From NCBI GenBank assembly GCA_016839365.1, contig JAEOUH010000017.1, positions 1-26,898 on the forward strand: a stretch of DNA of 26,898 nt, written 5' to 3'. Below are positions 1 to 23,051 of this stretch, in pieces. This stretch comes from Candidatus Hermodarchaeota archaeon. Lineage in GTDB: Archaea; Asgardarchaeota; Hermodarchaeia; Hermodarchaeales; Hermodarchaeaceae. A program made the position numbers and the translations under genes. Position 1 is the stretch's first letter; each line of letters opens with the position of its first letter. The notes beneath the pieces were generated by a model, which had not been told where the DNA came from, did not search any database, and saw only the letters and a program-made list of their open reading frames with translations.

Positions 1-1399
1 TAATGACCTTCTCGGCGTAAATCTTGGCGTTCTTGAAGATGATCTGAAAACCTGGTGCACCACCGGCTGCTGGTACCGTGGTCATCATCTGACCCGGCAT
101 CATGAAAGGTTGAGTCTGTTGAGCCATCGGGGCGGCTTCTTCTAGTCGCTCCTCCTCTTCCAACCTTGCTGCTGCACCTGTTTCGACCCAACGTTTAACA
201 ATGGGATGATTGTGATCCTTAAGGTAGGTCTTTAGTTCGTCGATGTTTCCGACGTCATTTTCTGTGGGGATAATGTCACGGATATTTTCTGGCATGAAAT
301 CATAGACACGGTCTTTGATAGCCTTGGGGAGCCAGACAATCCGATCCCAACTACCATCCACAATCAAGAACTTCGGAGATCGCAGATATTCGATAGAAAG
401 CCCATGAAAGCCAGGGATCTGACGGCCACCTGCGGTTGAATCCGCCATAGTGGAGAAAGGTAGGCCATTGACTGCAGCCCCCTTATAGTCTCGGTGTACG
501 ATTCCCAATCCATCCACTTCGGGGATGATGAAAGCAATCGCTTCAAAGCAACCACAGCTGGTATGCGGGTTCTCAAAGGCACTATAAAGAGCGACATCCG
601 TGACTGCGCCAAGGGTCTTTTCTTTGTAGGCTTGATTTACCCCTGCGTAGATACCCCTTTCTGTGTCGATGGTTTCACCTTTTTCAATAGCAAATAGAGG
701 ACCTTTCGGATCGACCCGCGCAGCAGCGCGTCCATCGAACCAACTGATAGCCCCACAATTCGCATATCGTTGGGCGGTGATCACACACATGTGTGTGGGG
801 GAGAAAGATTGGCACAGGGTACAACCGTAGAACACATCGACGTCGTCGTCTTTGAGGCCACGTGTCCGTTCATCTCGTGCATTGTAGGTTGTCATGGCAG
901 TATTATAGATCTCGTCCATCTTGCTAGTGTCTGTGTAAAAGGTGACCTGGATTTTCTCTATAATAGGCAACTCTGATTTGTATAAGCGTTGGTAGACTTG
1001 CCCTAGGATTTTGAAGCTGTTGAAACCCTTCTGGAAGGATTTCTTCCCAATGCGGATCCAGATGTCATAACGTTGGTTGAGGTGCATCGTGCCTTCCACG
1101 AAGTTTGTGTACTCGTGGATGTGGCGTTCAATGACTCCTTCCAAGTCTTGTTCAATCTCTTTACCAGCGACTTCAATTAAGATACCAAAGGGGTGGCTTT
1201 CACCTTCTTCGAGATCTTTGAGGTCTGGGCCAATGATTAGGATCTTCCCGTCTTCGACTTCGTTCGACTTTCTGGATAGCACAAGCTCGAACTTCTTGTC
1301 AACCTTTGGTCCACCAAGTTCAACTTGCATGTCAGCTTTTCGAATGCGTTCTCCTTCAAAGGTTACTCCTACTGAAACTGGTAGGTCTTCAAATGACAT
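1..1399 (-). CDS. cdhC: Acetyl-CoA decarbonylase/synthase (CODH/ACS) beta subunit, 3'-truncated by the window edge
   Basis: Not in the ORF track; translated by hand from ATG at 1399, which overlaps the cdhB stop (TAATG): MSFEDLPVSVGVTFEGERIRKADMQVELGGPK...FYGCTLCQSFSPTHVC...YANCGAISW...HTSCGCFEAI. The A-cluster cysteines are present and the frame stays open to the edge. Confidence 0.96.
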   Translation of the reverse strand, partial: MSFEDLPVSVGVTFEGERIRKADMQVELGGPKVDKKFELVLSRKSNEVEDGKILIIGPDLKDLEEGESHPFGILIEVAGKEIEQDLEGVIERHIHEYTNFVEGTMHLNQRYDIWIRIGKKSFQKGFNSFKILGQVYQRLYKSELPIIEKIQVTFYTDTSKMDEIYNTAMTTYNARDERTRGLKDDDVDVFYGCTLCQSFSPTHMCVITAQRYANCGAISWFDGRAAARVDPKGPLFAIEKGETIDTERGIYAGVNQAYKEKTLGAVTDVALYSAFENPHTSCGCFEAIAFIIPEVDGLGIVHRDYKGAAVNGLPFSTMADSTAGGRQIPGFHGLSIEYLRSPKFLIVDGSWDRIVWLPKAIKDRVYDFMPENIRDIIPTENDVGNIDELKTYLKDHNHPIVKRWVETGAAARLEEEERLEEAAPMAQQTQPFMMPGQMMTTVPAAGGAPGFQIIFKNAKIYAEKVI

Positions 1400-1968
1400 T
1401 ATTTGCTACCTCCTGAGAGAGTGAGAATTTCTTTGAGTGCGTCATTCCAATTCTGTTTCTTCAGGTTTGGAAAACTCCATGTTGCGTGAGGTTGATAGTA
1501 GCGACCGAGGGACACGGTCTTGATGTGGGGGGAGAAATTAATGAGCGCAGACAACATGAGCCATTCCATATAGTATGGGAAGCCATAGGTCATGACGAGG
1601 TCATGGGGTCCTTTCTTCGATGCGACCATCCAATCATGATCCTGGAGGCGTCCAGTGATTTCCATGGCACCATAGGAGTAGGCGTTATCAAAACCTTTCT
1701 CTTTGAAGGCTGTGATGGTATTTGCTGTAGCCACGATGGGGATTTTCGCTGCAGTGGAGAATTCGATGAAGTAGTCAATCATGGATTTCTTTCCTGTATT
1801 CTCTGTTAGGGCTTGAGAGCCAACCACAAGTAGGGGATGTTTTGCCTTCTTGAGGAGGGCACCCACTACAGCGGGTTTTTTAATGCCTTGGGCCTTAGTA
1901 GGTCCACAGACTTCAGCAGTTTGCCAGGGTTCTTCTCGCATCATGTCACTTACCACCTCCGTTACCAC
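1399..1968 (-). CDS. cdhB: CODH/ACS epsilon subunit
   Basis: EPWQTAEV.GP N-terminus, AKHPLLVVG, G.PYY and YQPHATWSFPN motifs; lies between cdhA and cdhC. The true start may be a few codons downstream. Confidence 0.93.
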   Translation of the reverse strand: MVTEVVSDMMREEPWQTAEVCGPTKAQGIKKPAVVGALLKKAKHPLLVVGSQALTENTGKKSMIDYFIEFSTAAKIPIVATANTITAFKEKGFDNAYSYGAMEITGRLQDHDWMVASKKGPHDLVMTYGFPYYMEWLMLSALINFSPHIKTVSLGRYYQPHATWSFPNLKKQNWNDALKEILTLSGGSK

Positions 1969-4303
1969 CGTAGACTAAACGTCTCACTAGTGTGGGGTCT
2001 GGAATTGGTTTTTCTTGCCACTTGTTCTCTTTCATCTGAGCCTTGATTTTGTCTTTAATGGTGATTGGGATGTCTGTCTCTCGACGAATGTACGTGTGGA
2101 CATCGTCGGGGAAGTACCCCTTGTAGGTTTCATGTAAGTCGATGTAGTGGCTTAGTTTAATGGCTCGGCCCTTCGCAGTATCGTTTGGACGAATTGCTAG
2201 CTTTGCAGTCATGACCATTAGTTCTTCTAAGTTCTCAACGGCGTAAAAAAGGTGTTCAGGACCCGCTGCAACTTGGACACGATCACCAGTTCGAGCATCC
2301 CATACCATCCAGTCTTCGGGCTTGTCAGCACGACCAAGGAGCATTCGACGGTACTTGGTACCGTGTGGACCAACAATGACCGGAACTCCAAGTCGCCAGA
2401 AACCTGCAGCAATGGAGGCGGCTTTCTGAGACATTGCACCCCACGAGATTCCAACTGCACCCACACGGTTGTGAATGTAATCAGCAATCTCTTCGTAGTT
2501 TCCTCGGAGGTTACGTTTGGCGAAGATGTTGGCAATTTTAATGGCTGCGCCTGCGATGTGTGAGTTTGCCACACAAGATCCGACATTGAGGACACTTCCT
2601 GCATCAAAAGTGCCAGGGCGTCGCTCATAAATCGACTTACCCTCTTCATCTTTGATGGCTCCCACAGTCATAGCTGCGCATCCAGAGAATACCACAATGA
2701 AACGTCGTTTGGCGAACTCTTCAGCATGATCGTGAATCGCGCGTCCACCATCGGGATAGTTTGCACACCCTACGTGGGCGATTACTCCAGGAATTTCTCC
2801 GAAAACGATTGGCTGGCCCACCGTTCGAATTTCTGTATCCTTGATGGCACCTCGGCCTGACCGGACCATGAAAGATTCTTGTTTCCATCGTCCTTCAGCG
2901 GCTTTCACCATCCAACTGTGTAAGTCGTATTCGTTGGGGCACGCGGACTCGCATCGAGCACAGCCAATGCATTCGTCATAGACATCAGCGAGTGGTTCGA
3001 AGTTACCTTCAGCAGCTGCCAACACCGCATCCATGACAGGTTGGTCATTGGGGCAAGATCGGACACATTCAGAGCATTGTCGGCAAGCCTGGGCTAATTC
3101 CTGCATCTTAGCTTTACTTGGAAGCGAACCTTTCTTCTTCCGCTTCGGATGCATCTTAATGGCTGTTTTAACAACAACCTCACCGATTTTCTCATGATCC
3201 CGAATGTAGACACCAGGTGTCTTACCTGACACTAGGTCCTTCACGATGTCATCGACATCATCATCAGTGCGGTCTGGCAAGCCCATGGTCGATTTATCAC
3301 AGGTGGCAATGACAGGTGAATTAACCTTCTTTGCGTGTTCAAGGATATCGGTTCGAATACACTGTTCGTCGACAACGACCACATCAGCAAACCCGGCACG
3401 AACAAAGCGTAGTTGCCAGGAAATGGGGCCAACGATCTTTGTCTTGGCGTCATAACGGGAAATATCCCAGGCTGTGCAACAAATACCGGCAATATCGATA
3501 TTGTCAGAGACTCCTGTTTCGGAAGCATAATCCATAATATAGGTTGCTGGCACCACGTTATGCCCAATGGCAAGAATCATGGCTTTCTTCGGGTCCATGC
3601 TTGAAATACCGGCTTCAATAAGCGGTGCGTCCGGATCCGACTGTGGGAACCCAAGCGTGGAGATCTGGGCTAGGTCTGCGATTTCCATGCCCACCTGGTC
3701 AATCATGCCCACGTGGAAGGCCTTCGATTCAAAATCAATCCAGCTGCCCTCCTGTCCGGTGGCTACGGCAGATAATGTGTGGGTTAGTTGGGTTTCACAA
3801 TAGTCTAGAATCGCTGAAGCGTCCTCAAGGGTACGGGGTCGAATCCCAGTGACCAGTCGGCTGACTGGCGCTTCGATTTCAACTCCATCTCCTTGGCTAA
3901 GTTCAAAGCGAGGGCCAAATTCATGAATCATATAGTCAACCATATGTCGGGAGTGTGCAAGGTGTGCGGCACACCCGATGTTCGCAGCAGCCAACACAAT
4001 CCGTGCTGACTGTCCTTCAATGTCGAGTCCACATGCACCCCGTTTGCCACTAGTTAAGTCACATTTCCCGAACGTACACAGACAGCAGAGTTGGCAGGCT
4101 GGCATGTACGCGGGCCGGTACCGGGTTAGGAGTTTGTGGTCCCAGCTGCGAAGAGTGGTGACATCAGGCATCGGAGTGGGTCCCATGGGCTCATCCCAAT
4201 CATCATCTATGACCTTGCCGATCGTGACTTCGATGTTCCGGAAGGACCCAAATCCAGTGTCAAGCTTATCGGCTTTCAGTCGTGCTCGTTTTTGTTCTGT
4301 CAA
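1946..4303 (-). CDS. cdhA: CODH/ACS alpha subunit (Ni-CO dehydrogenase)
   Basis: MGPTPMP; CQLCCLCTFGKC; HxxHxxH (AHLAHSRH); C-cluster ligand motifs GHN, GICCT, DEQC, VGC, SGC, GSC; SQKA; two extra ferredoxin motifs CRQCSECVRSCP and CIGCARCESACP. TTG start. Confidence 0.97.
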   Translation of the reverse strand: MTEQKRARLKADKLDTGFGSFRNIEVTIGKVIDDDWDEPMGPTPMPDVTTLRSWDHKLLTRYRPAYMPACQLCCLCTFGKCDLTSGKRGACGLDIEGQSARIVLAAANIGCAAHLAHSRHMVDYMIHEFGPRFELSQGDGVEIEAPVSRLVTGIRPRTLEDASAILDYCETQLTHTLSAVATGQEGSWIDFESKAFHVGMIDQVGMEIADLAQISTLGFPQSDPDAPLIEAGISSMDPKKAMILAIGHNVVPATYIMDYASETGVSDNIDIAGICCTAWDISRYDAKTKIVGPISWQLRFVRAGFADVVVVDEQCIRTDILEHAKKVNSPVIATCDKSTMGLPDRTDDDVDDIVKDLVSGKTPGVYIRDHEKIGEVVVKTAIKMHPKRKKKGSLPSKAKMQELAQACRQCSECVRSCPNDQPVMDAVLAAAEGNFEPLADVYDECIGCARCESACPNEYDLHSWMVKAAEGRWKQESFMVRSGRGAIKDTEIRTVGQPIVFGEIPGVIAHVGCANYPDGGRAIHDHAEEFAKRRFIVVFSGCAAMTVGAIKDEEGKSIYERRPGTFDAGSVLNVGSCVANSHIAGAAIKIANIFAKRNLRGNYEEIADYIHNRVGAVGISWGAMSQKAASIAAGFWRLGVPVIVGPHGTKYRRMLLGRADKPEDWMVWDARTGDRVQVAAGPEHLFYAVENLEELMVMTAKLAIRPNDTAKGRAIKLSHYIDLHETYKGYFPDDVHTYIRRETDIPITIKDKIKAQMKENKWQEKPIPDPTLVRRLVYGGNGGGK

Positions 4304-4460: not shown

Positions 4461-5651
4461 TTACTCTAATGGGACTTTTTTCCCGTTGATATAGGCTTCT
4501 GTCACTTCACTATAGAAATCGAAGGGATGTCCGGACCAAACAATGATATCTGCATCTTTACCAGGTTCAAAGGAGCCGATGCGGTCTTGCAGGTTAAGGA
4601 TTTCTGCTGGGTTGATGGTTACGCATTTGAGTGCATCATCGCGACTCATGCCTTCCTTAATTACGTACATGGGCAGTAAGGGAAAATAGAGCATGGGAGT
4701 CAACGAATCGGTTTGCAAAGCTACCTTCACACCAGTCTCATTCAAGACTACTGCGGTTTTGAAGCTTTTCTCCTTGACTTCGGGTTTCCCAGACCAGAGA
4801 ATTGTAGGGCCGATTACTGCGGGATATTGTTTCTTGGCTAGGAACTTCGCAATCTTGTGACCTTCCGTGCAATGAATGAGGACCAATCGGAGATTGAACT
4901 CCTCTGCAATACGAATGATAGTCGCAATATCGTCAGCTCGGTGACAATGGGCATGAAGGGGGATTTCACGTTTGAGAACCTTCGCAATGGTTTCGAAACC
5001 GATGTCACGTTTAGGCGCTTTTGGAATGATTTCGCCCTTATCCTTGGCATCCTTCGCTTTGACTCCGAACGCTTTCCATTCATCGAGATAGTTCTGACCA
5101 TCAGTGAAGGTTTTACGAAGAAGGGCAGCAACACCCATGCGAGTCATTGGCATCCGTTTGTTATCTTGCCCATGAATCCGTTTGGGATTCTCGCCTAGCG
5201 CTACTTTCAGTCCTGATGGGGATATGACAATCATTTTTTCAACAACAGTTTCAGGAACAGGCTTAAAGACAAAAGCTTCACCGGATACGACATTCCCGGA
5301 TCCTGGACCTGTGTTGACTGTAGTAACACCCCCTTTGAGAATTTCTTTGATTGAATATTCAAAGGGGTGGAACCCGTCCTTCCCCCGCATTTCGGGTGTG
5401 ACAGGGGTAGTCATTTCATTGCCATCTTGACCCATTGGACCAATGGTGCCATCGAAGAGCCCGTGGTGGGCATGAGCTTCAACAAATCCAGGGACTACGT
5501 ATTGACCCTCAACATCAATTGTTGTGGTTCTACTGGGAATCGCAATAGATTTTCCAACATCAACAATTTTACCCCGGTCAAAGAGAATTGAACCGTTCTC
5601 GATAAGCCCTTGAACCGGACACCAAATTGTTGCGTTCACAATGGCTTTCAA
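4461..5651 (-). CDS. Metal-dependent amidohydrolase (imidazolonepropionase-like superfamily)
   Basis: PGFVEAHAH (HxH), PGSGNVVSG, LKVALGENPK, HAHCHRADD, IHCTEG, TINPA and GKDADIIVW motifs; TTG start with GGTGA RBS. Not FwdA by length or motif. Confidence 0.9.
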   Translation of the reverse strand: MKAIVNATIWCPVQGLIENGSILFDRGKIVDVGKSIAIPSRTTTIDVEGQYVVPGFVEAHAHHGLFDGTIGPMGQDGNEMTTPVTPEMRGKDGFHPFEYSIKEILKGGVTTVNTGPGSGNVVSGEAFVFKPVPETVVEKMIVISPSGLKVALGENPKRIHGQDNKRMPMTRMGVAALLRKTFTDGQNYLDEWKAFGVKAKDAKDKGEIIPKAPKRDIGFETIAKVLKREIPLHAHCHRADDIATIIRIAEEFNLRLVLIHCTEGHKIAKFLAKKQYPAVIGPTILWSGKPEVKEKSFKTAVVLNETGVKVALQTDSLTPMLYFPLLPMYVIKEGMSRDDALKCVTINPAEILNLQDRIGSFEPGKDADIIVWSGHPFDFYSEVTEAYINGKKVPLE

Positions 5652-5817: not shown

Positions 5818-6612
5818 CTAAGTATTTAAGCGGCTTCGAAGTTCGGGAATCAAAGCTTTGATGGATTGAACTGCCGGTGAATCGGGGGCAAAATCAATTG
5901 GAGCTTGACCTTTTTGGTTGGCTTGGCGGATTGCATTATCGAACGGAATGATAGTTAATAAGGGGACGCCAATCGCTTTGAGGGTGCGTTCGATGACCTC
6001 CTGATCCGTTTCATCCATTACCTTGTTACCTACTGCAAACACCGTTTCTACGCCGATATCATTTGCAAGCTTCTTGATCCGTTCAACGGTGTTGATTGAA
6101 GTTTGACCTGGTTCAACGACAACGATCAGAGCATCCATACCTCGTGAGGTTCCACGACCAAGGTTTTCGATACCCGCTTCAAGGTCCATGATAAAAGCTT
6201 CATCGCTGCCTACGATCAGATGACGAATGAGTGCTTTAAGGAGCGCTCCGGCTGGACACATACATCCTGAACCCCCGATGGTTACTGTTCCAGCAATGAG
6301 TAGCGTGGTGTTGTCAGGTCCAGGAACCCCATATTTTTTGGCAAGATCTGAAACGTGCGGGTTGAGTTTGAACATGCCACCATAGGTTTTTTTGTCCATT
6401 CCAGTTCTCTCTTCTACGAGTTCATCGTTCTCAGTTAGTGGAACGATTTTTGCAGCGACTTCAGCGGGAATCCCAAGCGTTGATGCAAGGGTTGGAGTTG
6501 GATCTGCATCAACTGCGAGGACTTGGATGTTTTCACGACCTAGGAAACGGGCAAGAGTACCAGCAACGAGGGTTTTTCCAACTCCACCTTTTCCAGCAAC
6601 AGCGACTTTCAC
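5818..6612 (-). CDS. cooC: CODH/ACS nickel-insertion ATPase CooC/AcsF
   Basis: VKVAVAGKGGVGKT deviant Walker A, AVDADP, Ni-binding GCMCP, DLEAGIENLGRGT. GTG at 6612 with GGTGG upstream is preferred over the ORF start at 6684. Confidence 0.93.
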   Translation of the reverse strand: MKVAVAGKGGVGKTLVAGTLARFLGRENIQVLAVDADPTPTLASTLGIPAEVAAKIVPLTENDELVEERTGMDKKTYGGMFKLNPHVSDLAKKYGVPGPDNTTLLIAGTVTIGGSGCMCPAGALLKALIRHLIVGSDEAFIMDLEAGIENLGRGTSRGMDALIVVVEPGQTSINTVERIKKLANDIGVETVFAVGNKVMDETDQEVIERTLKAIGVPLLTIIPFDNAIRQANQKGQAPIDFAPDSPAVQSIKALIPELRSRLNT

Positions 6613-6683
6613 AGTGACCACCGTTGGTCGTAGTACCTGGGAAGAGTGTTTAAAAGATTCCCATCTAGCTATGACCCAAGTCA

Positions 6684-7964
6684 TCAGAGTGTCACGAGAA
6701 TTTGTTGGAGAACGTTTTCTTCAGTAAGAACTCCCTGTGGTGGTTCTTTGAAGGGCTTCAAGGGGATGGCTACTCCATCCATCCGATAAGCTGTTCCACT
6801 TGTCTCTGCCCCCATTAATGCTGTGGGAAAGACAATCGAGGCCTTTTTCGTCGTTAGGGTTGGGAGGGTGGAAAAAGTGATCAGTGGGAGTTTAGATAGT
6901 GCTTGAGCCATTGGTCCCGGAAGGAGGCTCAACGCATCCCAATTGGTAATTATAGCACAATCGAACTGCCCATCTGTTAAGCTCTTGAAGATTGACGTAA
7001 TGGGCTTTGGAGGATTTGAGCTAAAGTCAACGGAGAATGGTAGTTTAGAGCTTTTTAGGCTGGCTTTAACTGAACCAATAGTATTACAATAAGCGACCAT
7101 TGGGAAGGTCCAACAGCGGCGTTTGCCACGATTAAGGGTGCTTTTAAGTTGTTTGAGGAGGGGTAAGCTTTGAGCGGAGTGCGTGGTGTGTATCAACCCG
7201 TTTCCATAAAATAATGCGATGGTTTCTGCTTCGCGGAGCTGTTTTGCGAAGCTAAGGAACTCAATTGTGGGAACACCACCAACTTTCTCCGCTAATGGCT
7301 GCTGGGTTCCTTTGAGTTCACCAATCAGTGCTTGGAGGAATTCCACATCTCCAGTAGTTGGGGAAAGAATGAGCTGGTGGTTCGCTAGCCCCATTGATTC
7401 GGTTTTGCGAACATCGAGCACCGAAACCACGCGGCTTTCTCGTCCTTCAGGGATGTTTTTTCCTTTGGGAAAGATGGAGAAGCGGCTAGCATGACGATGG
7501 TGACTTTCTGCTGGATTGACGCCCCAATAGACGATGTGATCAGCATAATCACGGACATCATCCAGTCTGACCTGCTCTGATTCACTGTCCTGGAGCTTAG
7601 TTCGAAGTATTTGTCCATATTCAAAACTTGCAGTACTTTCGAAGACTCCCTTCTGGTTTTTAGATAGTTGTAACCCGATTTGGATTGCTTCCTGTGTGCT
7701 GTTGGACCAACCTATGAATAATGGTCTTGAATTATCTTTTAGGAGACTTTTGGCCTGTTGAATTGCATCTTTGGTTGGTATCGGTCCGAGCTTACCACTA
7801 CCATCTTTATACAATGCTGTCGTGAGTCGGTGTTTATTAAAAACAGAATTGCAGTATTCATGACCCAATCGGCATAATCCCAAAGACTGCAGGTTTGTTT
7901 TCTTCACCGCTACTGCAACGTCATCGCAGACCACAGAACAGCCACAACACACAGTATCCTGCAT
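6684..7964 (-). CDS. fwdB: Formylmethanofuran dehydrogenase subunit B homologue with degenerate active site
   Basis: VCCGCSVVCDD...CRLGH 4Fe-4S motif, RPLFIGWS, ADHIVYWGVNP..SH.RH, DVRKT, FYGNG, PFSVDFS, G.ETSGTAYRMDGV. Canonical TASVCHGP reads TASFEYGQ. ATG at 7964 is preferred because 8039 overlaps fwdG. Confidence 0.88.
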   Translation of the reverse strand: MQDTVCCGCSVVCDDVAVAVKKTNLQSLGLCRLGHEYCNSVFNKHRLTTALYKDGSGKLGPIPTKDAIQQAKSLLKDNSRPLFIGWSNSTQEAIQIGLQLSKNQKGVFESTASFEYGQILRTKLQDSESEQVRLDDVRDYADHIVYWGVNPAESHHRHASRFSIFPKGKNIPEGRESRVVSVLDVRKTESMGLANHQLILSPTTGDVEFLQALIGELKGTQQPLAEKVGGVPTIEFLSFAKQLREAETIALFYGNGLIHTTHSAQSLPLLKQLKSTLNRGKRRCWTFPMVAYCNTIGSVKASLKSSKLPFSVDFSSNPPKPITSIFKSLTDGQFDCAIITNWDALSLLPGPMAQALSKLPLITFSTLPTLTTKKASIVFPTALMGAETSGTAYRMDGVAIPLKPFKEPPQGVLTEENVLQQILVTL

Positions 7965-7998: not shown

Positions 7999-8466
7999 TC
8001 ACCATATCTCGATAGCCTTAACATAGCAGCCCTGTTCACATACTCGGCAGTTCATCCGATCAGGAGGAAATCGACGACATCTCTCTAGATTGATAATTTT
8101 AACGATCCCATCTTCAACCCGAAAGACAGTTTCTGTCGTTCGAGCTGCTTTCCCAGAAGCTGTGTCAGGCTCTACAGTTGCATCTACGGGACAAACGACA
8201 ACACAGTTCCCACACCCTGTGCATTTGGTTTCATCTAGTTTTAAACCTGTTTCTTCGGTATCGAGAAGGGGGGTGATGAGGTTTGAAAGTTCGGCGAGTT
8301 GGGCTTTGTACTGCTTTTCTTCAAAGAGGGGCGTACATTCTTTGAGTTCGACATCACGGAGCGCTAATCGGGTGGCAAACGCCATGCACGTCATCCCACA
8401 TTTTTTGCAATTGGTTTGAGGAAGCAGTTTGTATAATTGCATCGGGTTGATTTTCTTATCCGACAT
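7999..8466 (-). CDS. fwdG: FwdG/FmdG-like ferredoxin with an N-terminal FeS domain
   Basis: LYKLLPQTNCKKCGMTCMAFA domain, then CTGCGNCVVVCPV and C...CRVCEQGC; directly upstream of fwdB. Confidence 0.8.
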   Translation of the reverse strand: MSDKKINPMQLYKLLPQTNCKKCGMTCMAFATRLALRDVELKECTPLFEEKQYKAQLAELSNLITPLLDTEETGLKLDETKCTGCGNCVVVCPVDATVEPDTASGKAARTTETVFRVEDGIVKIINLERCRRFPPDRMNCRVCEQGCYVKAIEIW

Positions 8467-8644
8467 CTGGGTACGACACAGCCTACATCTATTGTGTTCC
8501 GACTTGACCCTTTATCTCTTCGGTACCAACCAGCCATTTTCATTTACCAATTTCCTTAATAGTTCAATCAAAGGATAGTAATGTAAAAACTGTTAAAACG
8601 TATATTGCCGCCAGAAGAGATTGAAACGACTAATGGTGACTGCG

Positions 8645-11089
8645 GTGGCAAAGACCTCGAAAAAGAAAATACAGAAATCTCAACCCAAGAAGCCTCGCCG
8701 TAAACCCGCAACCAAATCATCTGGCAAGACGGCATTGTTTCTGTGCCACTGTGGGTCAAATATCGACAGTATTGTAGATATCGATGCACTAATCAAACAT
8801 TACAAAAAGCTGCCCAACCTGGTTGTAGTGGATGATGCCCATTTTTGTGTTGAACAGGGACTGAACCAAATTCGTGACACTATCCGCAAGGAGAAGGTGA
8901 CTCACGTCGTGGTTGCAGCCTGCTCACCTCGGTTACATGGAGAACTCATGAGCCAGACTGTCGAAGAAGTAGGATTGAATCGGGGACATCTCGCCATTGC
9001 CAATATCCGGGAACAGTGTAGTTGGGTTCACTGGGATAATCCCGTTGCAGCCACCGCTAAAGCACAACTGATGATCGATGCGGCGTTGACAATGGCTCAG
9101 CACGGGTTTGCTATTAGCTCGATTAGCGTTCCGATTACGAGACGTGTACTTGTCATAGGTGGGGGACCTGCTGGGTTAACCTCCGCACTACAACTTGCAG
9201 ATGCAGGATATGAAGTGGTACTCGTTGAGAAGAGTGGATTTCTAGGAGGACACATGGCTAAGTGGGACAAACTGTTCCCCAGTCTTGATTGCAGCCTCTG
9301 CATCCTCGGACCCCTTATGACCCAAGTGGGTACTCATCCTAAAATCAAGGTCCTCACACTCAGCGAGGTTACCGGGGTTCAAGGCACGCCTGGAGCATAT
9401 CAGGTCAAAGTTCATCAGGAACCCCGATATGTGGACCTGGAGACCTGCAATGGGTGTAATAAATGTCTAGAAATTTGTCCCATCGAGGAGCCCAATGAAT
9501 ACAATTATGGCATTGGAACACGGCGGGCGATTATACGCCCTTATCCGAATACAGTACCCCTCGCACCCTATATTGACATGAATACATGTGTAGGATGCCA
9601 GTCCTGTGTTGGCGTGTGCGAGAAAGAATCCATCCGGTTTGAAGACTCTGACCGCGACCATATCTTCAAGGTTGGGGCAATCATCGTTGCCACAGGATTT
9701 ACACCTTATAATCCCCAAAATCTCAAGGAATACGGGTATGAGCAGTATCCTGATGTTATTACCGCACCTGAACTCGAAAGACTATTGGATCCAATTGGAC
9801 CCTCCAATGGCGTCATTGTCCGACCCTCTACAGGAGATCCACCCAAACGCATTGCATTTGTCCAATGTGTAGGCAGCCGAGATATTCGGATTGACCGTCC
9901 TTATTGTAGTCGAATCTGCTGCACATACGCTGTTAAAGAAGCAGTCCAGCTCCGCCTCTCACAACCTGATACCGAAGTTTTCGTTTTCTATACGGATATG
10001 CGAACCTTCGGGAAAGGATTCGAGGAACTGTATGAAAGAGCTGCACGTGAATACGGCATCACCTTTATTCGTGGTCGTGTGGCAGAAATTGAGGAAGATC
10101 CCCAAACTCATAAACTTCATATCCGGGCTGAAGATACTGAACTTTGCGAGCCCATCGAGTTTCCTGCCGACCTTATCGTGTTGAGTGTCGGAGTTGATCC
10201 AGCACCTTCCAACGTGAAGTTGGCGACTTTACTCAACATCCCCCTTGATGAGAATAATTTCTTCTTAGAAAAACATCCCAAGCTTAATCCTACAGGTACC
10301 TATTCTTCGGGTATCTTTTTGGCAGGTACATCGCAAGGTCCAAAGGATATTGCAGATACCGTTGCGCACGCGGGGTTGGCAGCGGCCCAGGTTTCCGCTC
10401 TTCTGAACCGACGGAAAATCGAATTGGAAGTATATGCTCCTGTAGTAGACGAAACGTTGTGTGAAAGTTGCCGACTTTGCGAAAAGACCTGCGATGCCAA
10501 TGCCATCTCCTTTGAAAGTTCCGAAACTCCCCAAATCGATGAAATTGCTTGTACTGGTTGCGGGGCGTGTGTCGCCGCTTGTCCCACAGCCGCCTTGGAT
10601 CTGCCAGGATTCACGCGTCAGCAACTCCTTTCAGCGGTTGATGTAGCTTGTCAGAACAATTCATTGCACCCCGTTATCATTGGCTTCCTTTGCAACTGGT
10701 GTGCGTATGCTGCGGCGGATAGCGCCGGTGTCAACCGAATACGGTATCCTCCGCAAATGATTCCGATTCGTGTACCGTGTACAAGCCGCCTTGATCCGTT
10801 GCTAGTCCTAGAAAGCTTCAGTCAAGGAGCGGATGGTGTAGCAATCCTCGGTTGTCATGAAACCGATTGCCATTACCGCACGGGTATGACCAAAGCGAAG
10901 GCCCGAATTGATAAACTGCGTCCCTTGCTTGAAGAAATGGGGATTAACAGTGATCGAATCCTCTTTGCTAGTACAGCTGCATCCGAAGGAGCCAGGCTTG
11001 CTGAACTGGTTTCTGATTTTGTCAAATCTATTGCAGACATTGGTCCTCTCGGATCCGAATTGACAGTTACGACAAAAACCCGTCAATAA
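8645..11089 (+). CDS. hdrA: Heterodisulfide reductase subunit A fused to an MvhD domain
   Basis: CHCGSNI, AACSP, NIREQCSWVH, VIGGGPAG (FAD), FPSLDCSLC, inserted and C-terminal ferredoxins, QCVGSRD, YCSRICC..A.K, GPKDI. C-terminal MvhD from about 10670: IGFLCNWCAY, IRVPC, GADGV, GC...CHY. Start may be 8621, 8633 or 8645 (GGTGA precedes 8645). Confidence 0.95.
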   Translation: MAKTSKKKIQKSQPKKPRRKPATKSSGKTALFLCHCGSNIDSIVDIDALIKHYKKLPNLVVVDDAHFCVEQGLNQIRDTIRKEKVTHVVVAACSPRLHGELMSQTVEEVGLNRGHLAIANIREQCSWVHWDNPVAATAKAQLMIDAALTMAQHGFAISSISVPITRRVLVIGGGPAGLTSALQLADAGYEVVLVEKSGFLGGHMAKWDKLFPSLDCSLCILGPLMTQVGTHPKIKVLTLSEVTGVQGTPGAYQVKVHQEPRYVDLETCNGCNKCLEICPIEEPNEYNYGIGTRRAIIRPYPNTVPLAPYIDMNTCVGCQSCVGVCEKESIRFEDSDRDHIFKVGAIIVATGFTPYNPQNLKEYGYEQYPDVITAPELERLLDPIGPSNGVIVRPSTGDPPKRIAFVQCVGSRDIRIDRPYCSRICCTYAVKEAVQLRLSQPDTEVFVFYTDMRTFGKGFEELYERAAREYGITFIRGRVAEIEEDPQTHKLHIRAEDTELCEPIEFPADLIVLSVGVDPAPSNVKLATLLNIPLDENNFFLEKHPKLNPTGTYSSGIFLAGTSQGPKDIADTVAHAGLAAAQVSALLNRRKIELEVYAPVVDETLCESCRLCEKTCDANAISFESSETPQIDEIACTGCGACVAACPTAALDLPGFTRQQLLSAVDVACQNNSLHPVIIGFLCNWCAYAAADSAGVNRIRYPPQMIPIRVPCTSRLDPLLVLESFSQGADGVAILGCHETDCHYRTGMTKAKARIDKLRPLLEEMGINSDRILFASTAASEGARLAELVSDFVKSIADIGPLGSELTVTTKTRQ

Positions 11090-11155: not shown

Positions 11156-12862
11156 TTGGAATGCGTGCGGAGGTTGAAATATCTACTCACCATTTGGTTG
11201 CTTTTATCAAGCCTTGCATTAAGCCTCGTTTCACCCAGTGCGATACAGCCAACACCAGTCAATAACCCAAGTAGCAGTCTCGTGAGTTCAGACCAAATCT
11301 GGAACGTGACTGAGGATTTAGGAATAGGGCAAAACATCTTCCATTCAGTTATTGCCTGTAGCGATGGTGGCTATCTAGCCACGGGGACCGGTATTTTTCA
11401 GAGTCGCTGGTCTATCTTTTTAATGCGGTTAGGAGAGAATGGAGAGGTCGTATGGCGCAGATTTTTCCAGGAATATATCTCGCAGGGCGGAATGGAGGTT
11501 GTTGAATGTCAATCAGGTGGATTTGCTGTAGTTGGCTACACCACCTCAAATAATCATGATGTCCTGCTCCTTCGTACTGATGAGGAAGGGCAAACCATGT
11601 GGTATCGAACTTATGGTGGAGTATCTTCTTATGAACAAGGAATGGCATTAGTTGAATGTCAGAACGATGGATTCGCATTAGCTGGATTTCAACGAAATTA
11701 TGGCAGTGATGATTCTGATTATTTCCTCGTCCGCACTGACGAAGAAGGCACCCAAGTCTGGAACAGAACCTATGGTGGAAATGCTCCTGATATCTGTTAT
11801 TCTCTTATCGAATCGCCTAGCCGATATTTCTATTTAGCAGGTTCAACTGAAAGTTTTGGTGAAGGGGAGGAAGACGCTTGGATCGTAGCGACCTATGGAA
11901 GCGGAAAAGAAGTATTTAACCGCACTCTTGGTGGCTCTATGACTGATATATGTCATGATATCATCGATTCAGGAGCAGAAAGGTATGCATTTGTTGGTAA
12001 TACTGCAAATTCCCCGAACATGATCGCCGATGGCTTTGTAGCTACACTTCATGGGAATGGCACTATTCTTTGGGAGACAACCTTTGGTGGTGTATTATTT
12101 GATAGCGGTTATGCAATTGCAAAATGCCAAGATGGGGGGTATGCGATAACAGGACAAACCTTTGACAGCTCAGGATCGACTAATCTGTTGCTTATCCGGA
12201 TAACCAGTGAAGGTGAATATCAGTGGATGAAGAGTTATGGAGCAGACAACGATGATGAAGGTCGATCCATAGTCCAAGCCGCGAATGGAGATTTCATCAT
12301 TGTAGGTTTGACGGATGAACACATTGAGGACTTCTATAATTCACACTCGATGGCTTTCGCATTACGAGTCCCCGATATTAGTCCGGAATATATTCCAACA
12401 CCTGAATATGGTCCACCAGATTTTGGGTTAATTAGTACTGGGGGTGGTCTTGCCATTCTCATGCTTCTTGGGGCCTACTTGATGCTAATACGCAGTCGAA
12501 GAGAGATCAGACAAAGTTGGGTTAAACCGAAACGCCGAGTAATCAAAAGGTCATTCTCAACCCCATGGTTACTTGATGAGTTGTCAGCTGTCTTGCGTGG
12601 TGAAATCCGTTGTTTGAAATGTAATGAACTTAACCCAAAGTCTAATCTTCGTTGTATTAAATGCACCAGTCATCTACATTGTTGCATATTTTGTGGCCAA
12701 ATCATCGCCCAAGGGAATGAAGTCCTTTTCTGCCCGAAGTGTAAGGTTCTAGCTCATTCCAATCATATGCTTGAATGGTTAGCGAAACGAAATTATTGTC
12801 CAAGTTGCGGCTATCGTTTCAAAAGTCAAAAAATTCTCAAAAGGGGAGACCAACCAGTGTGA
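11156..12862 (+). CDS. Single-pass membrane protein: signal peptide, beta-propeller repeats, TM helix, zinc ribbon and RING-variant finger
   Basis: About 7 repeats of W.RTYGG...D.G......C.DGG(F/Y)A..G; Pro-rich stalk; TM GLAILMLLGAYLMLI followed by RSRR; CLKC/CIKC; CIFC-x11-CPKC-x4-HSNH-x2-EW-x6-CPSC. Start uncertain (11156, 11165 or 11174). Confidence 0.85.
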   Translation: MECVRRLKYLLTIWLLLSSLALSLVSPSAIQPTPVNNPSSSLVSSDQIWNVTEDLGIGQNIFHSVIACSDGGYLATGTGIFQSRWSIFLMRLGENGEVVWRRFFQEYISQGGMEVVECQSGGFAVVGYTTSNNHDVLLLRTDEEGQTMWYRTYGGVSSYEQGMALVECQNDGFALAGFQRNYGSDDSDYFLVRTDEEGTQVWNRTYGGNAPDICYSLIESPSRYFYLAGSTESFGEGEEDAWIVATYGSGKEVFNRTLGGSMTDICHDIIDSGAERYAFVGNTANSPNMIADGFVATLHGNGTILWETTFGGVLFDSGYAIAKCQDGGYAITGQTFDSSGSTNLLLIRITSEGEYQWMKSYGADNDDEGRSIVQAANGDFIIVGLTDEHIEDFYNSHSMAFALRVPDISPEYIPTPEYGPPDFGLISTGGGLAILMLLGAYLMLIRSRREIRQSWVKPKRRVIKRSFSTPWLLDELSAVLRGEIRCLKCNELNPKSNLRCIKCTSHLHCCIFCGQIIAQGNEVLFCPKCKVLAHSNHMLEWLAKRNYCPSCGYRFKSQKILKRGDQPV

Positions 12863-12940: not shown

Positions 12941-14314
12941 TTGCCAAAAATCACCGGGCTGCTTCTTGGTCTGCTCCTCACGCCATTTAGCATTCCCCTT
13001 ATCCTCTTTCAACCTTTGAATTATGAGTCAGCCGTTGCACAACCACGATTAACTAGCAATCTGGAACGTGAGAATGACTTTCGATGGGTGCAATTTTTTG
13101 ATAATATAACTGCCAGACATCCCAGATCCATTTCTGAATGCCAAACAGGGGGGTTTGTCATTACAGGTTTCGTTGTGGAATCAGAGATTGGTCTCGGTGA
13201 TGAACATGCATGGATGGCTAGAATCAATGCAGTTGGGGAAATCATCTGGGAACACGATTACGCATCTGGACACCGTGGTTGGGGACAAGTTGTTATTGAA
13301 TGCGAAAACGGTGATTTTGTAGTGGCTGGAGGTGTGGATGATGAATTCTCGAATGTTCTTATTTTTCGAACTGACCGATGGGGAAACCTTCTATGGCAAC
13401 GGATTCTAGCCTTTACGGAGCATCAAGAAGGTTATGCAGTAACAGAATTACCAAGCGGGCTCTTGGTCGTGTGCGGATGGGCTTGGCACTATCGACCGAC
13501 CAATCCTATTGACGGATTGGTTATTTGTCTTAATGCTAGTGGCCAACTAATCTGGCATCGAGAATATGGTGGTCTTGGGGACGACTACCTATATTCTATT
13601 GCTAGGGATTCAAGTCAGGGATTGACCTTTGTTGGCTCGTCAGAGAGCTTCTCAGATAGCTCGATTAGAATGTGGGCAATGAATACTGATTTTGATGGAA
13701 CGCTAAAATGGGAACGGACATTTGGGTACTCAATGTATAGTCGGGGCAATAGCATTATCACAACAAGTGAGGGTGAATTGACCATGGCAGGTGTTATGCA
13801 GGATATGGGGGCTGGTCGGTTGGGTTCTTATATCGTTCATACAGCCCCGGATGGCTCGGAGTTATGGGAGCAGCAACTGGATTTAGGCACAGATAATGTC
13901 GCCCATTGTATCACGTCTTGTAGGGATGGTGGCTATGCAATGATCGGTGCTGTATCTCATTCAGAAAATAATCCCTGGCATGATATCATTGTTGTTCGAT
14001 TTGATCGAGATGGAAACATCCTTTGGCGAAAGGTCTATGGAGGAGAAGGAAATGATATTGGGGTATCGATAGTAGAGTGTCGTGAGGGGGATTTGGTATT
14101 TGCGGGTTCCACTTCTAGTTATGGATATTTGAGTGGAACAACTTGGCTCACCCAAATTCCAGATGCGCCACCACCACTCGTCGATCTGAGACGGGTGGAC
14201 TTGCTCATAACCCTGTTTGGATTGACTCTTGCTTTGATTGTTCTTGCGGTAACGGGTGGCATCTATCTTGTTAGCCGCAGAGAGATAAAACATCGTATTC
14301 GAGATTGTGCCTAG
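12941..14314 (+). CDS. Membrane-anchored beta-propeller protein, paralogue of the upstream gene lacking a cytoplasmic domain
   Basis: Hydrophobic N-terminus, the same W...YGG / EC..G repeats, IPDAPPP stalk, C-terminal TM followed by SRREI. Confidence 0.85.
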   Translation: MPKITGLLLGLLLTPFSIPLILFQPLNYESAVAQPRLTSNLERENDFRWVQFFDNITARHPRSISECQTGGFVITGFVVESEIGLGDEHAWMARINAVGEIIWEHDYASGHRGWGQVVIECENGDFVVAGGVDDEFSNVLIFRTDRWGNLLWQRILAFTEHQEGYAVTELPSGLLVVCGWAWHYRPTNPIDGLVICLNASGQLIWHREYGGLGDDYLYSIARDSSQGLTFVGSSESFSDSSIRMWAMNTDFDGTLKWERTFGYSMYSRGNSIITTSEGELTMAGVMQDMGAGRLGSYIVHTAPDGSELWEQQLDLGTDNVAHCITSCRDGGYAMIGAVSHSENNPWHDIIVVRFDRDGNILWRKVYGGEGNDIGVSIVECREGDLVFAGSTSSYGYLSGTTWLTQIPDAPPPLVDLRRVDLLITLFGLTLALIVLAVTGGIYLVSRREIKHRIRDCA

Positions 14315-14380: not shown

Positions 14381-15823
14381 ATGACAAAGGCTCAACGAGA
14401 TCGAATAACTGTGGGAGAACGCCCAAAGGTAACTAGTGAAGTCTTAGATGATACCAATATCCGGTACAATTGGAAAACATCACTGCTAAATAAAAACCTC
14501 AAATATGATCTGTCCCGCTGTGTTGGTTGCAGTCTCTGTCTGCCCTGTCCCTGGGATGCTATCACCTTGGGACCAGTGCAGGAAATTGCCGCAGGACGCC
14601 TTGAAGAAGCACCTCTCATTCTCATCGATGAGGATAAATGCACTTTCTGTGGCTTATGCGATTCTGCCTGCCTTTTTAATGCGATTGAGGCGCGATTTGA
14701 TGATATCCCTGCCGATCGACAATTTTTACGATTGAAAGGGAAACATGAACTCGATAAAGAGAAATGTGCCCCCTGTGTTTTGTGTGCCAAAGTCTGTCCC
14801 CGAAACGCTATCACCGTGGACCTCAAAGTTACTCCTAAAACCAAACTGGTCAGTTATAAGGATTCCAAGGCTGCCAGACGAGTGGCTGAGGGAAAACCAG
14901 ATGCCAAAGGAACCATTGCCATCGATGAGGACAAATGCACATGGTGTGGCTTATGTGAATTGTTGTGTTCTGAATGCGTCACTATCTACTGGTCAGAGGA
15001 CAAGCCAAAACCTCCCGAATTCGCACCTGCCGTTGGCATACGAGTTGACAAAACACACTGCGATTACTGTGGGCTGTGTGAGAAGATTTGTCCTTCCGAT
15101 GCCGTGAAGGTTAACTGTGAAAGCACACCTTCTCGGACAATCAAGGATCCCGAAGTCGAGGGAACTATGACCATTGATGACGGGCTTTGTGTTGACTGTA
15201 CACTATGTGCTGAAAAATGTCCCTATGAAGCCTTGGAGGTCACGTTACCACTTACCGGTGATATTGAGATTCAAAACCTTGAGAAATGTGATCCCACAGG
15301 GTGCGTTAATTGTTTTAACATATGCCCCACTAAGGCCATTTATCCGACCGGTGATAAGGATAAAATTGCCATCAACAAAGATATCTGTGTCTTCTGTGGG
15401 GCTTGTGAAAATGCCTGTCCTGAACAGGTCCTTAAAATTACGCGAGACAGTTATAAACTCTCTCAAATTGAGAAAGCCCGTGATTGGGAACGAGCACGAG
15501 CACATATGTTCTATGACCACTTGATTGGGTTAACTGCTCCACGAAACGATATTTATGAACGTGTTATCAAAGTAGCTCCCACCCAACACGAAACTGCCTT
15601 GCAAACAAAATCAGACCAGTGGTCAGAACACAACGTTAGTCGTACACAGGCCCAAGCACGAATTCAGAAACTACAAGAGATTATTCGGAAAAATTGGCGG
15701 TTACGTTTACTTTTCGAGCGAGGTCGCGTCGATCCTTTATGCGCAGCTGTCAAAGACGAGGCGCAAAAAAAACCAAGTTTAGGAGCTAGTGGAAAAGCTA
15801 CTTCAAAAAATCAGCCCCGTTAG
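14381..15823 (+). CDS. fwdF: Polyferredoxin, FwdF/FmdF-like
   Basis: Eight CxxCxxCxxxC-type motifs (two slightly irregular: CVGCSLCLPCP and CDPTGCVNCFNICP); fwd/hdrA context. Confidence 0.85.
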   Translation: MTKAQRDRITVGERPKVTSEVLDDTNIRYNWKTSLLNKNLKYDLSRCVGCSLCLPCPWDAITLGPVQEIAAGRLEEAPLILIDEDKCTFCGLCDSACLFNAIEARFDDIPADRQFLRLKGKHELDKEKCAPCVLCAKVCPRNAITVDLKVTPKTKLVSYKDSKAARRVAEGKPDAKGTIAIDEDKCTWCGLCELLCSECVTIYWSEDKPKPPEFAPAVGIRVDKTHCDYCGLCEKICPSDAVKVNCESTPSRTIKDPEVEGTMTIDDGLCVDCTLCAEKCPYEALEVTLPLTGDIEIQNLEKCDPTGCVNCFNICPTKAIYPTGDKDKIAINKDICVFCGACENACPEQVLKITRDSYKLSQIEKARDWERARAHMFYDHLIGLTAPRNDIYERVIKVAPTQHETALQTKSDQWSEHNVSRTQAQARIQKLQEIIRKNWRLRLLFERGRVDPLCAAVKDEAQKKPSLGASGKATSKNQPR

Positions 15824-16197
15824 AGTAATTGGTCAATGGGTGTAATAGGCTCTGTGCTTGGTTTGATGGTAACCTCGGTGCCCTGACTTGCCATCATTCT
15901 TTCAATGAGTGCATAGGCCCAAGGGCTAGGCTGCATTACGGCCATACCCGCAGGTTGATCGGATTGAATCTCAGCAACCACAACCACACTACCTGTATCA
16001 GACTTTACCAAAACGTGATTTCCCTCCTTGAGGTTCAATCGTTGGGCATCACGTAGCGCAATTCGTATCCGAGCACTCACTTGCTGATACTCTTTTGAGA
16101 GGCTTCCAAACCCTGCCTGTGCTTCATCAACATCCAAGGCTCGCGCAAGAATAAGTATCACCTCAAGATGTGGGTAAAGGAAATCACGAAGGGCCAT
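15820..16197 (-). CDS. fwdD: FwdD-like molybdopterin dinucleotide-binding-domain protein, divergent
   Basis: DAQRLNLKEGNHVLVKSDTGSVVVVA...PAGMAVM..SPWA; 125 aa length is typical of FwdD. Confidence 0.78.
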   Translation of the reverse strand: MALRDFLYPHLEVILILARALDVDEAQAGFGSLSKEYQQVSARIRIALRDAQRLNLKEGNHVLVKSDTGSVVVVAEIQSDQPAGMAVMQPSPWAYALIERMMASQGTEVTIKPSTEPITPIDQLL

Positions 16198-16329: not shown

Positions 16330-17025
16330 GTGGCCTACGATATTGCTCGATCCAGCATATCCTACATGACTTATACTCTTATTCTACTCAATACTGTCAT
16401 ATTCATCCTCGTCTATGCTGTCGAGATACAAACTGGCTATCCTGTTATCACCTACATGTTCGCCCTGATTCCTTCAGTTATCGTTTCTGGACAAAATCTT
16501 CACACACTGATCACAAGCCAATTCCTTCATGCCGATTTCTTCCATTTGTTAATCAATATGTACTTCCTTTTCATCTTCGGACAAGTGGTAGAGCGTGAAA
16601 TGCACCCCTTTACTTATGTGGCTCTCTATCTCTTTGCAGGGATTATTGGAGGATTAGGACATGTCCTCATAATGTTTACAATTAGTTCTGCAGTGAATCC
16701 TTGGGGGATTTCTATCCCGACCATCGGAGCTTCTGGAGCTATCTTTGGAATAATGGCTGCTTATGCATATTTGCTTCCTCGTCGCCCCATTGGCATTTCC
16801 GGGGATGCTGGACGTACAGCCGGTGCCTGGAACATTATCATCATCTACTTTGCCATCGAAGTGATCATGATGTTTTTAGCTTTTGGCACAGGTGTCGCTC
16901 ATGGGGCTCATGTGTTTGGGTTTGTTGGAGGCTTCCTATTCGCGTTTAGTTATCGACGCATTCGAGTCTGGAGAAATCGATCCAAACCAGGAAGTGAGTT
17001 TGACCCCTATGAGTATTATGTATGA
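16330..17025 (+). CDS. Rhomboid intramembrane serine protease
   Basis: TSQFLHADFFHLLINM, catalytic GASG, AHGAH..G; multiple TM helices. Confidence 0.94.
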   Translation: MAYDIARSSISYMTYTLILLNTVIFILVYAVEIQTGYPVITYMFALIPSVIVSGQNLHTLITSQFLHADFFHLLINMYFLFIFGQVVEREMHPFTYVALYLFAGIIGGLGHVLIMFTISSAVNPWGISIPTIGASGAIFGIMAAYAYLLPRRPIGISGDAGRTAGAWNIIIIYFAIEVIMMFLAFGTGVAHGAHVFGFVGGFLFAFSYRRIRVWRNRSKPGSEFDPYEYYV

Positions 17026-17048
17026 AAGATTGGTTCGTGGGTTGAGGA

Positions 17049-19106: not shown

Positions 19107-19307
19107 CCAATCACACACCTATAGAAGGTTGCTCTTTGCACGTTGTTTGTATGCAACTTCCATTTAAGGTAATAACCTTCAAGGAAGAGCAGGGTCCAGA
19201 AAAATCAATACGTTTATTAGATGCCTTTCAGGTCGTGGTTGCAGTTTGAGAAAATGAGCTTAAGCTGTAATGTACCTAAACTCATTACTCACTTGAGGTA
19301 TCAACAG

Positions 19308-22861: not shown

Positions 22862-23051
22862 AAATGGGGCGCTCATAGGGCACAGACCTTGGAATTCGTT
22901 TCTTCTCGCAGGTGAAAAGGGTAAACTCCTTCGAGTTCACCACAGACCCTTGTAGAATTCCTCCAACTATTTTCATCGACGGTAATAAGGCTAAAATAGA
23001 GCCTTGATTCCCTGTTGTATCGTATCATCTTTAATTAGGCGGAGTGTCAAA

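Follow-up and report, generated by a model that had tools for sequence, protein, structure and literature searches.

A FwdB paralogue without active-site residues in an HdrA2-linked gene module of Asgard archaea: a candidate non-catalytic iron-sulfur subunit

Introduction

Models of Asgard archaea treat them as Wood-Ljungdahl organisms, and in the annotation of their genomes each "fwdB" is taken to encode a CO2 reductase. The stretch analyzed here (the window), 26,898 nucleotides of contig JAEOUH010000017.1 from a Candidatus Hermodarchaeota archaeon (GCA_016839365.1), carries a homologue of this gene at positions 6684-7964 of the minus strand, whose product lacks the Cys, His and Arg residues of the FwdB active site. 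What does such a protein do once these residues are gone: is it decaying, has it acquired a new chemistry, or does it serve without any? This 426-residue protein, called FwdB2 in the following, was recognized as a FwdB-fold paralogue from its translation, its TIGR03129 score, its matches in the Protein Data Bank (PDB), and an AlphaFold2 model compared by Foldseek. An earlier reading of the DNA (the original prediction) had taken it for a non-catalytic FwdB homologue that keeps its [4Fe-4S] cluster. We come to a similar view and hold it with somewhat better than even confidence: FwdB2 would be a non-catalytic iron-sulfur relay and/or scaffold, probably free of pterin, that belongs to a second lineage of Asgard FwdB proteins (group B, below).

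Residues and Fold of FwdB2

The 426-residue frame is unbroken, its terminal TGA being the sole in-frame stop upon translation. We take the ATG at 7964 as the start, rather than the GTG at 8039, because the homologues all start with MQDTVCCGC; the purine-rich sequence AGGAAG is found 10-15 nt upstream of this ATG. In a HMMER alignment, residues 111-118 (TASFEYGQ, 7611-7634) fall on TASVCHGP of M. wolfeii FwdB (5t5i_B), with Glu115-Tyr116 (GAA TAT, 7617-7622, minus strand) on Cys118-His119. Residues 288-294 (PMVAYCN, 7083-7103, minus strand) stand for PMRGHYN, Val290 and Tyr292 taking the places of Arg288 and His290. Further on, TNWDA (6933-6947, minus strand) replaces IASDP and puts the bulky, hydrophobic W342 at a position held by Ser or Ala in canonical proteins, and FSTLPT aligns with IEPHRT of the M. 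wolfeii protein. Translation and alignment thus agree with the original prediction in each of these respects, namely the two motifs in an intact frame with GAA and no TGA at the ligand codon, the four replacements by E, Y, V and Y, and the altered late motifs.

Accordingly, FwdB2 has neither the Cys/Sec ligand nor the His119 and Arg288 of a catalytic FwdB. It does have the N-terminal CxxCxxxC...C [4Fe-4S] site, made of C6, C9, C13 and C31 (C6-x2-C9-x3-C13...C31; 7872-7949, minus strand), and WGVNPAESHHRH is retained as well, in agreement with the prediction that the cluster cysteines and WGxNP..H.RH remain.

Over its whole length FwdB2 matches the solved FwdB chains (HMMER against the PDB: 8rja_B, E 9e-52; 5t5i_B, E 9e-50). 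Its TIGR03129 score of 290.5 bits lies under the family cut-off (327.8), the other FwdB of the genome reaching 509.7. The AlphaFold2 model, built from a 48-sequence alignment (mean predicted local distance difference test score, pLDDT, of 93.4), shows the fold of MopB domains I-III over ~430 aa. Superposition on known structures with Foldseek, a check that the original prediction had suggested, gives FwdB chains as best matches (template modeling score, TM, 0.91-0.94; root-mean-square deviation 2.2-2.3 Å; ~430 columns), followed by formate dehydrogenases and nitrate reductases (TM 0.7-0.8). The TM of the model with FhcB (6s6y_F), the subunit to which FwdB2 had been likened, is only 0.67, and FhcB gave no match to FwdB2 in a phmmer sequence search.

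Evolution of the Glu-Tyr Proteins

A word-indexed search returned 57 homologues of FwdB2 (50-95% identity), the named ones from Promethearchaeota, Hermod-, Thor- or Hodarchaeota. The motif S-T-A-S-x-E-Y-G is present in each of the 56 that span the site, Glu and Tyr being invariant down to the minimum identity of 50%. Across this Glu-Tyr clade 75 positions are invariant despite divergence of up to 50%, position 290 is V, I, F or A and never Arg, and the position of W342 is occupied by W in 41 proteins (M in 6, V in 4, F in 2, I, L and Y in 1 each). The four cluster cysteines, which are conserved in canonical FwdB too, are not replaced in any clade member spanning them. Two other cysteines were considered as substitute metal ligands and rejected. 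Cys293 (in AYCN) varies within the clade (48 Cys, 5 Ala, 3 Ser), and the position of Cys284 is hydrophobic (F/W/A/V) in other groups, hence Cys284 is a buried core residue and no new ligand. The former, the Cys of AYCN, is the one that the original prediction had named as an example of a metal ligand that would speak against it.

In a survey of 200 sampled genomes of the phylum, a Glu-Tyr FwdB2 was present in 18 out of 18 genomes of the window's Asgard family, with an intact frame in all of them, and each also holds a second match (~30% identical, among the matches listed). Relative to the closest genome (80% identity), the ratio of nonsynonymous to synonymous substitution rates (dN/dS) amounts to 0.11 for FwdB2, 0.03-0.07 for its neighbors, and 0.17 for the FwdD-like protein FwdD2 described below. 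Because the Glu-Tyr pair is invariant, the gene occurs in 18 of 18 genomes, and its dN/dS is 0.11, we conclude that FwdB2 is under purifying selection, about twice as relaxed as its neighbors. The purifying selection on the substitutions that the prediction had asked about is therefore seen in the relatives, and its counter-scenario, in which close relatives all retain Cys and dN/dS is relaxed here, does not describe them.

To place the Cys loss in the history of the family, 779 relatives were collected by scanning 1.8 billion cluster representatives with HMMER. A FastTree phylogeny of 198 sequences splits into a group A, composed of the canonical Cys-His-Arg proteins and a large Cys-less radiation, and a group B, in which Arg is found in none and Cys-His or Cys-Gln is kept in some only. 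In an IQ-TREE phylogeny of 64 sequences rooted on canonical FwdB, with support from the Shimodaira-Hasegawa-like approximate likelihood ratio test (SH-aLRT), the Glu-Tyr clade (100) is sister to a Gly-Leu clade (100) of Thor-type loci with the same gene context (97 for the two jointly). This pair is nested among Cys-His-retaining proteins of the same HdrA2 module in other families, and the Cys loss is therefore derived and arose inside an existing module. The alignment and tree with FwdB relatives, proposed earlier as a check, thus assign the Glu-Tyr clade to a FwdB-derived group B. In other Asgard families the orthologous FwdB2 of this module has Cys-His intact and Ile or Ala for Arg288; it is probably an active and as yet uncharacterized W/Mo enzyme. 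Elsewhere among FwdB proteins, all four cluster cysteines are still kept in the large Cys-less radiation near canonical FwdB, and in some otherwise canonical FwdB relatives among public proteins Cys118 is replaced by Glu, Asn or Gly while His119 and Arg288 stay.

The partner subunit has evolved as well. FwdD2 (15820-16197, minus strand; 125 aa) is a FwdD-like molybdopterin-dinucleotide-binding-domain protein (PF01568, 2e-11; 8rja_D, 1e-8), and it shares PF01568 with the canonical FwdD only, the two being the sole such genes in the genome. In alignments, the motifs TGR..QG, PWA[N/S] and P-x-[FY]-K are common to canonical FwdD and to FwdD2 from Cys-retaining lineages. The C-terminal motif of the window's protein reads PWAYALIE..SQG (15880-15924, minus strand), in which the Asn of PWAN has become Tyr, the loop is shorter by 6 residues, and P-x-[FY]-K ends in Gln instead of Lys. 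The Glu-Tyr lineage has VD for QG, the 6-residue deletion and Gln for Lys, and Tyr or Phe for Asn in 8 of 9 loci; the Gly-Leu lineage has lost the Arg, QG, Asn and Lys. Judged by these alignments, FwdD2 has changed in step with the Cys loss of FwdB2.

The host genome (2.2 Mb, 84% complete) also contains the second, canonical fwdB that had been looked for. It lies on contig C32 and encodes the Cys-His-Arg set (SVCHGP, PLRGHFN), with a canonical FwdD gene 3.5 kb away and FwdA on the same contig, FwdC being located on C3. As to pterin biosynthesis genes, another proposed check, the outcome is mixed: neither MoaC nor MoeA_N nor the MoaA C-domain was detected in the genome at its 84% completeness, and there is no clean correlation to the Cys loss. 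MoaC was found in just 2 of the 18 genomes of the window's family and in 6 of 6 Thor-type genomes with a confirmed Gly-Leu variant. We thus rejected the idea that Cys loss tracks the loss of pterin synthesis, as MoaC is present both with Gly-Leu and in two Glu-Tyr genomes. Given that the window's family has a canonical FwdB, yet MoaC was mostly not found, it may rely on salvaged pterin cofactor.

Genomic Context

The genes around FwdB2 form a second set of Fwd-like proteins. Directly upstream, FwdG2 (7999-8466, minus strand; 155 aa, PF04060 plus Fer4) is a chimeric Fe-S protein that joins a CdhE/AcsC-type cluster domain to a FwdG-like 2x[4Fe-4S] ferredoxin: in the PDB, its residues 9-60 match the corrinoid iron-sulfur protein 9fzy_F (7e-6) and residues 74-131 match FwdG 5t5i_G (1e-11). 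The N-terminal cluster domain is otherwise typical of corrinoid iron-sulfur proteins (CdhE/AcsC) and RnfB, and every occurrence of the module has this chimera. An HdrA2-type flavoprotein fused to MvhD (8621-11089, plus strand; NF040770, 918 bits over 3-777/777; PF02662 FlpD/MvhD at 686-808) lies 155 bp from the start of the FwdG2-FwdB2 operon and is divergent from it; the true start of this flavoprotein may be ~35 codons downstream of 8621. FwdF2 (14381-15823, plus strand), convergent to FwdD2, is a full-length FwdF/FmdF-like polyferredoxin with six CxxCxxCxxxC motifs and 35 Cys (7bkb_K FmdF, 4e-46; 5t5i_F, 8e-44). At this locus FwdB, D, F and G are thus each encoded a second time, along with HdrA-MvhD but without FwdA or FwdC. 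The original prediction had not noted these partners, nor the CODH/ACS genes next to them. No FwdA or FwdC above the family cut-offs was found in the window, the only such matches of the genome being on C32 and C3; there is no Ftr gene among the window genes and no FdhB/FrhB-type gene among its open reading frames.

On the other side, the start of CooC (5818-6684, minus strand; PDB 3kje_A CooC1, 2.6e-41), the Ni-insertion ATPase of carbon monoxide dehydrogenase (CODH), overlaps the stop of FwdB2. It is followed by a 396-aa amidohydrolase (4461-5651, minus strand; PDB 3ooq_A, 5e-94) and by genes of the archaeal CODH/acetyl-CoA synthase (ACS): cdhA (1946-4303, minus strand; TIGR00314, 1105 bits), cdhB (1399-1968, minus strand; TIGR00315), and cdhC (2-1399, minus strand; TIGR00316), which runs off the contig. 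The amidohydrolase had no FwdA match in the PDB search, and is confined to the version of the cluster found in the window's family, being absent from Thor-type and Cys-retaining loci. Between window positions 4303 and 5818, the spacers separating cooC, the amidohydrolase and cdhA differ by 0.2-2.5 kb among relatives, extra genes or elements being inserted there in some genomes.

We compared the window proteins by tblastn with 20 fetched loci of relatives. A core of FwdG2-FwdB2, HdrA2 and FwdF2 is found in 19 of them (8 from the window's family, 4 Thor-type, and 7 from other Asgard families), the remaining one (L062, family f2) having a FwdB-like gene alone. FwdD2 accompanies this core in 15 of the 19 loci by tblastn, and was recovered via PF01568 in the other 4, one of them on another contig. 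The co-occurrence of cdhA and FwdB-type genes by family was discarded as a link to FwdB2, since it merely reflects the presence of the whole pathway.

Other genes of the window vary more or lie further away. In the window's family only, hdrA2 and the FwdF-like gene are separated by two paralogues of 568 and 457 aa (11156-12862 and 12941-14314, plus strand), which have no Pfam match and give only a weak signal of beta-propeller repeats; their number and similarity vary among relatives. FwdD2 is followed by a rhomboid protease and a CofC-like guanylyltransferase (16330-17729, plus strand), in an order conserved across the window's family. Downstream of the module are also a 931-aa phosphoenolpyruvate-utilizing enzyme of the pyruvate phosphate dikinase/phosphoenolpyruvate synthase type (19221-22016, plus strand) and a 457-aa homologue of the large subunit of ribulose-1,5-bisphosphate carboxylase/oxygenase (23004-24377, plus strand).

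Function and Alternative Explanations

The residue losses, fold, conservation, synteny and phylogeny observed here bear first on the question of the cofactor. The tungsto- or molybdopterin is probably gone from FwdB2/FwdD2, because FwdD2 has lost its motifs, bulky residues (W/M/V) stand in the SDP motif, evolution is faster than in the Fe-S and Cdh neighbors, and the sister clade has no conceivable ligand. In related enzymes the metallopterin sits where the B and D subunits meet, and the absence of D together with loop remodeling explains the loss of the cofactor in Fhc (PMC11656701). The view that this FwdB homologue has kept its cluster and given up catalysis is further strengthened by the invariance of residues that are not ligands, the purifying selection, and the canonical FwdB encoded elsewhere in the genome.

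A role for such a protein is suggested by methanogen supercomplexes, in which low-potential electrons from HdrA reach the FmdB cluster by way of a polyferredoxin (MvhB/FmdF) and then FmdG, and from there the W/Mo-pterin (PMC13580544, PMC12350162). The Asgard module has a homologue for every link of this chain from HdrA to FmdB. From its synteny we infer that FwdB2 is a member of an Hdr complex, which would be homologous to the Hdr-polyferredoxin-Fmd(BDFG) arm of the methanogen supercomplexes. The path would start at HdrA2-MvhD as a core of flavin-based electron bifurcation and lead through the FwdF-like polyferredoxin and the FwdG-like ferredoxin to the cluster of FwdB2. FwdB2/D2 would then be a platform holding FwdG2 and FwdF2 as well as a one-cluster relay, the last station being catalytically dead. 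Since the module is joined to cooC-cdhABC and FwdG2 carries a corrinoid-protein-type cluster domain, we propose that the module probably exchanges low-potential electrons with CODH/ACS, without itself reducing CO2; judged by gene linkage, the output would go to this enzyme, perhaps via that domain of FwdG2. More tentatively, and with limited confidence, HdrA2-MvhD, FwdF2, FwdG2 and FwdB2-FwdD2 might constitute an undescribed Asgard supercomplex that docks on acetyl-CoA decarbonylase/synthase, with FwdB2/D2 as the docking platform and the FwdG2 domain feeding CODH (CO2 to CO) or the corrinoid protein (Co(II) to Co(I)), thus bypassing free ferredoxin. In a rarer variant of this docking arrangement, the invariant Glu-Tyr pair would be a new catalytic site.

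Several observations weigh against a non-catalytic, pterin-free FwdB2 that serves CODH/ACS. The absolute invariance of Glu115 and Tyr116 exceeds the need of a mere filler, and many conserved segments of canonical FwdB are retained (WGxNP..H.RH..R, DxRxT, FYGxG, GT.YRMDG). The Glu-Tyr clade keeps the same fraction of canonical-conserved sites (0.67) as the Cys-retaining proteins of group B (0.67); in the Cys-less relatives of canonical FwdB it is 0.75, and the groups do not differ by this measure, which was therefore set aside as a way of telling pterin retention from loss. FwdD2 is itself kept under purifying selection (dN/dS 0.17), and arsenite oxidase is a MopB enzyme that holds its pterin without any side-chain ligand. 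No HdrB/C or other high-potential partner was found in the window. Moreover, the position beside CODH/ACS is not universal: cooC-cdhABC is adjacent in 11 of 12 loci with a Cys-less variant, but not in the single locus examined from the second genus of the window's family, and of 7 Cys-retaining loci ~3 have it adjacent or nearby and 4 lack it.

Part of this evidence would suit an enzyme with a new chemistry, in which FwdB2/FwdD2 have kept a W/Mo-bis-pterin (or hold another metal) and catalyze a new low-potential reaction driven by HdrA2 bifurcation; Glu115 would be a ligand or lie in the second sphere, and Tyr116 would act as acid/base. The invariant pair, the retained segments without large loop changes in FwdB2, and a D subunit that is kept and, like FwdB2, under purifying selection are what one would expect of it. 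We nevertheless regard it as unlikely, since FwdD2 has lost QG, Asn and Lys and carries the 6-residue deletion in step with the Cys loss, W342 stands within the SDP motif, and the Gly-Leu sister clade retains this module without having any possible ligand. The scarcity of MoaC and its companions described above (MoaC in 2/18 genomes of the family) speaks against it too, as does a review of MopB proteins, in which the known states are Sec/Cys, Ser, Asp or no cofactor, Glu being never mentioned (PMC10100899). The original prediction had ranked a Glu-ligated pterin enzyme second, and the FwdD2 degeneration, W342, and the ligand-less sister clade lower it further.

A still weaker proposal makes FwdB2 the FhcB-type scaffold of a complex releasing formate from formyl-methanofuran, with the amidohydrolase in the role of FhcA. 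The likeness to FhcB holds as an analogy, the Cys ligand being lost in both, and the amidohydrolase gene, two genes downstream, has a weak N-terminal match to TIGR03121 (1.4e-8). As kinship it does not hold: sequence match and close structural fit are missing, FwdB2 has an Fe-S domain and a D partner, neither of which FhcB has, and the cluster lacks partners of the FhcA/FwdA, FhcC/FwdC or Ftr type, with FwdA and FwdC over cut-off on other contigs only. The amidohydrolase was rejected as a FwdA/FhcA analogue, as it matches 3ooq and not FwdA and is absent from the Thor-type and Cys-retaining modules. FwdB2 is thus not an FhcB relative, and we consider this explanation very improbable. Equally slight is the chance of a relic heading for loss and kept only through linkage to essential neighbors, as FwdB2 and FwdD2 do evolve two to three times faster than these neighbors, but the frame is intact in 18 of 18 family genomes, dN/dS is not near 1, the 75 invariant positions hold even at 50% identity, and a sister clade in another family shares the Cys-less state, which is hence old.

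A non-catalytic FwdB2 has consequences for how Asgard metabolism is read. The protein is mis-annotated as a CO2 reductase in public records, an error that carries over into pathway reconstructions which include it. The module would represent the methanogen principle of a bifurcating Hdr wired directly to a low-potential CO2-fixing enzyme, rebuilt in non-methanogenic Asgard archaea and possibly aimed at CODH/ACS. As Cys-retaining orthologues are still living, the loss of the Cys can be followed stepwise.

Comparison With Known Systems

FwdB2 shares with FwdB/FmdB (5T5I_B, 8RJA_B, 7BKB_H) the three-domain MopB fold, the length, 26-29% identity and the N-terminal [4Fe-4S] motif, as well as the types of partners (homologues of FwdD, FwdF and FwdG, together with HdrA, which is also part of the methanogen supercomplexes). 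It differs from them by Glu/Tyr/Val/Tyr in place of Cys118/His119/Arg288/His290, a TIGR03129 score under the cut-off, a cluster without FwdA/FwdC, and its position in the Arg-less group B. FhcB of Methylorubrum extorquens (6S6Y) is likewise a FwdB-derived subunit without the Cys ligand and acts as a non-catalytic scaffold, but it is bacterial, has no Fe-S domain and no D subunit, and its partners are FhcA, FhcC and FhcD.

Similar in function may be ElpA of the Elp-Hdr complex of M. marburgensis (8RVU), which is experimentally pterin-free (PMC12350162), and the Cys-less Molybdop proteins encoded beside hdrA in Methanosarcinales and anaerobic methanotrophic archaea (ANME) (PMC12054007). As in these, a cofactor-less MopB subunit seems to be retained with HdrA-MvhD: FwdB2 is encoded with hdrA and mvhD (the divergent HdrA2-MvhD, in 19 of 20 relatives' loci). 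The descent from FdhA and the FdhB-like F420 partner of the ElpA type were not found, the best relatives of FwdB2 being FwdB. ElpA and Molybdop descend from FdhA and are paired with an F420-oxidizing FdhB-like subunit on the electron-donor arm, whereas FwdB2 descends from FwdB, comes with homologues of FwdD, F and G (the low-potential acceptor arm), and lies by CODH/ACS; in addition, FwdB2 has its full length, ElpA being truncated. Nqo3/NuoG of complex I and ActB of alternative complex III are also MopB folds in electron-transfer complexes, which have lost their Mo/W-bis-pyranopterin guanine dinucleotide, but they belong to other MopB lineages, complexes and partners.

FhcB, Nqo3 and ActB have been described as cofactor-less MopB precedents in a review which remarks in passing that some FwdB-family matches lack the requisite Cys (PMC10100899), and our literature search found no paper describing the Asgard HdrA2/FwdB2 module. 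Functionally, FwdB2 would resemble the cofactor-less MopB relics; by descent it belongs to an uncharacterized Arg-less sister lineage of FwdB, and it has the full set of defining features neither of a catalytic FwdB nor of FhcB. To the molybdopterin-fold scaffolds that have been recycled (Nqo3, ActB, FhcB, ElpA), it adds a full-length case that retains both the cluster and the D subunit.

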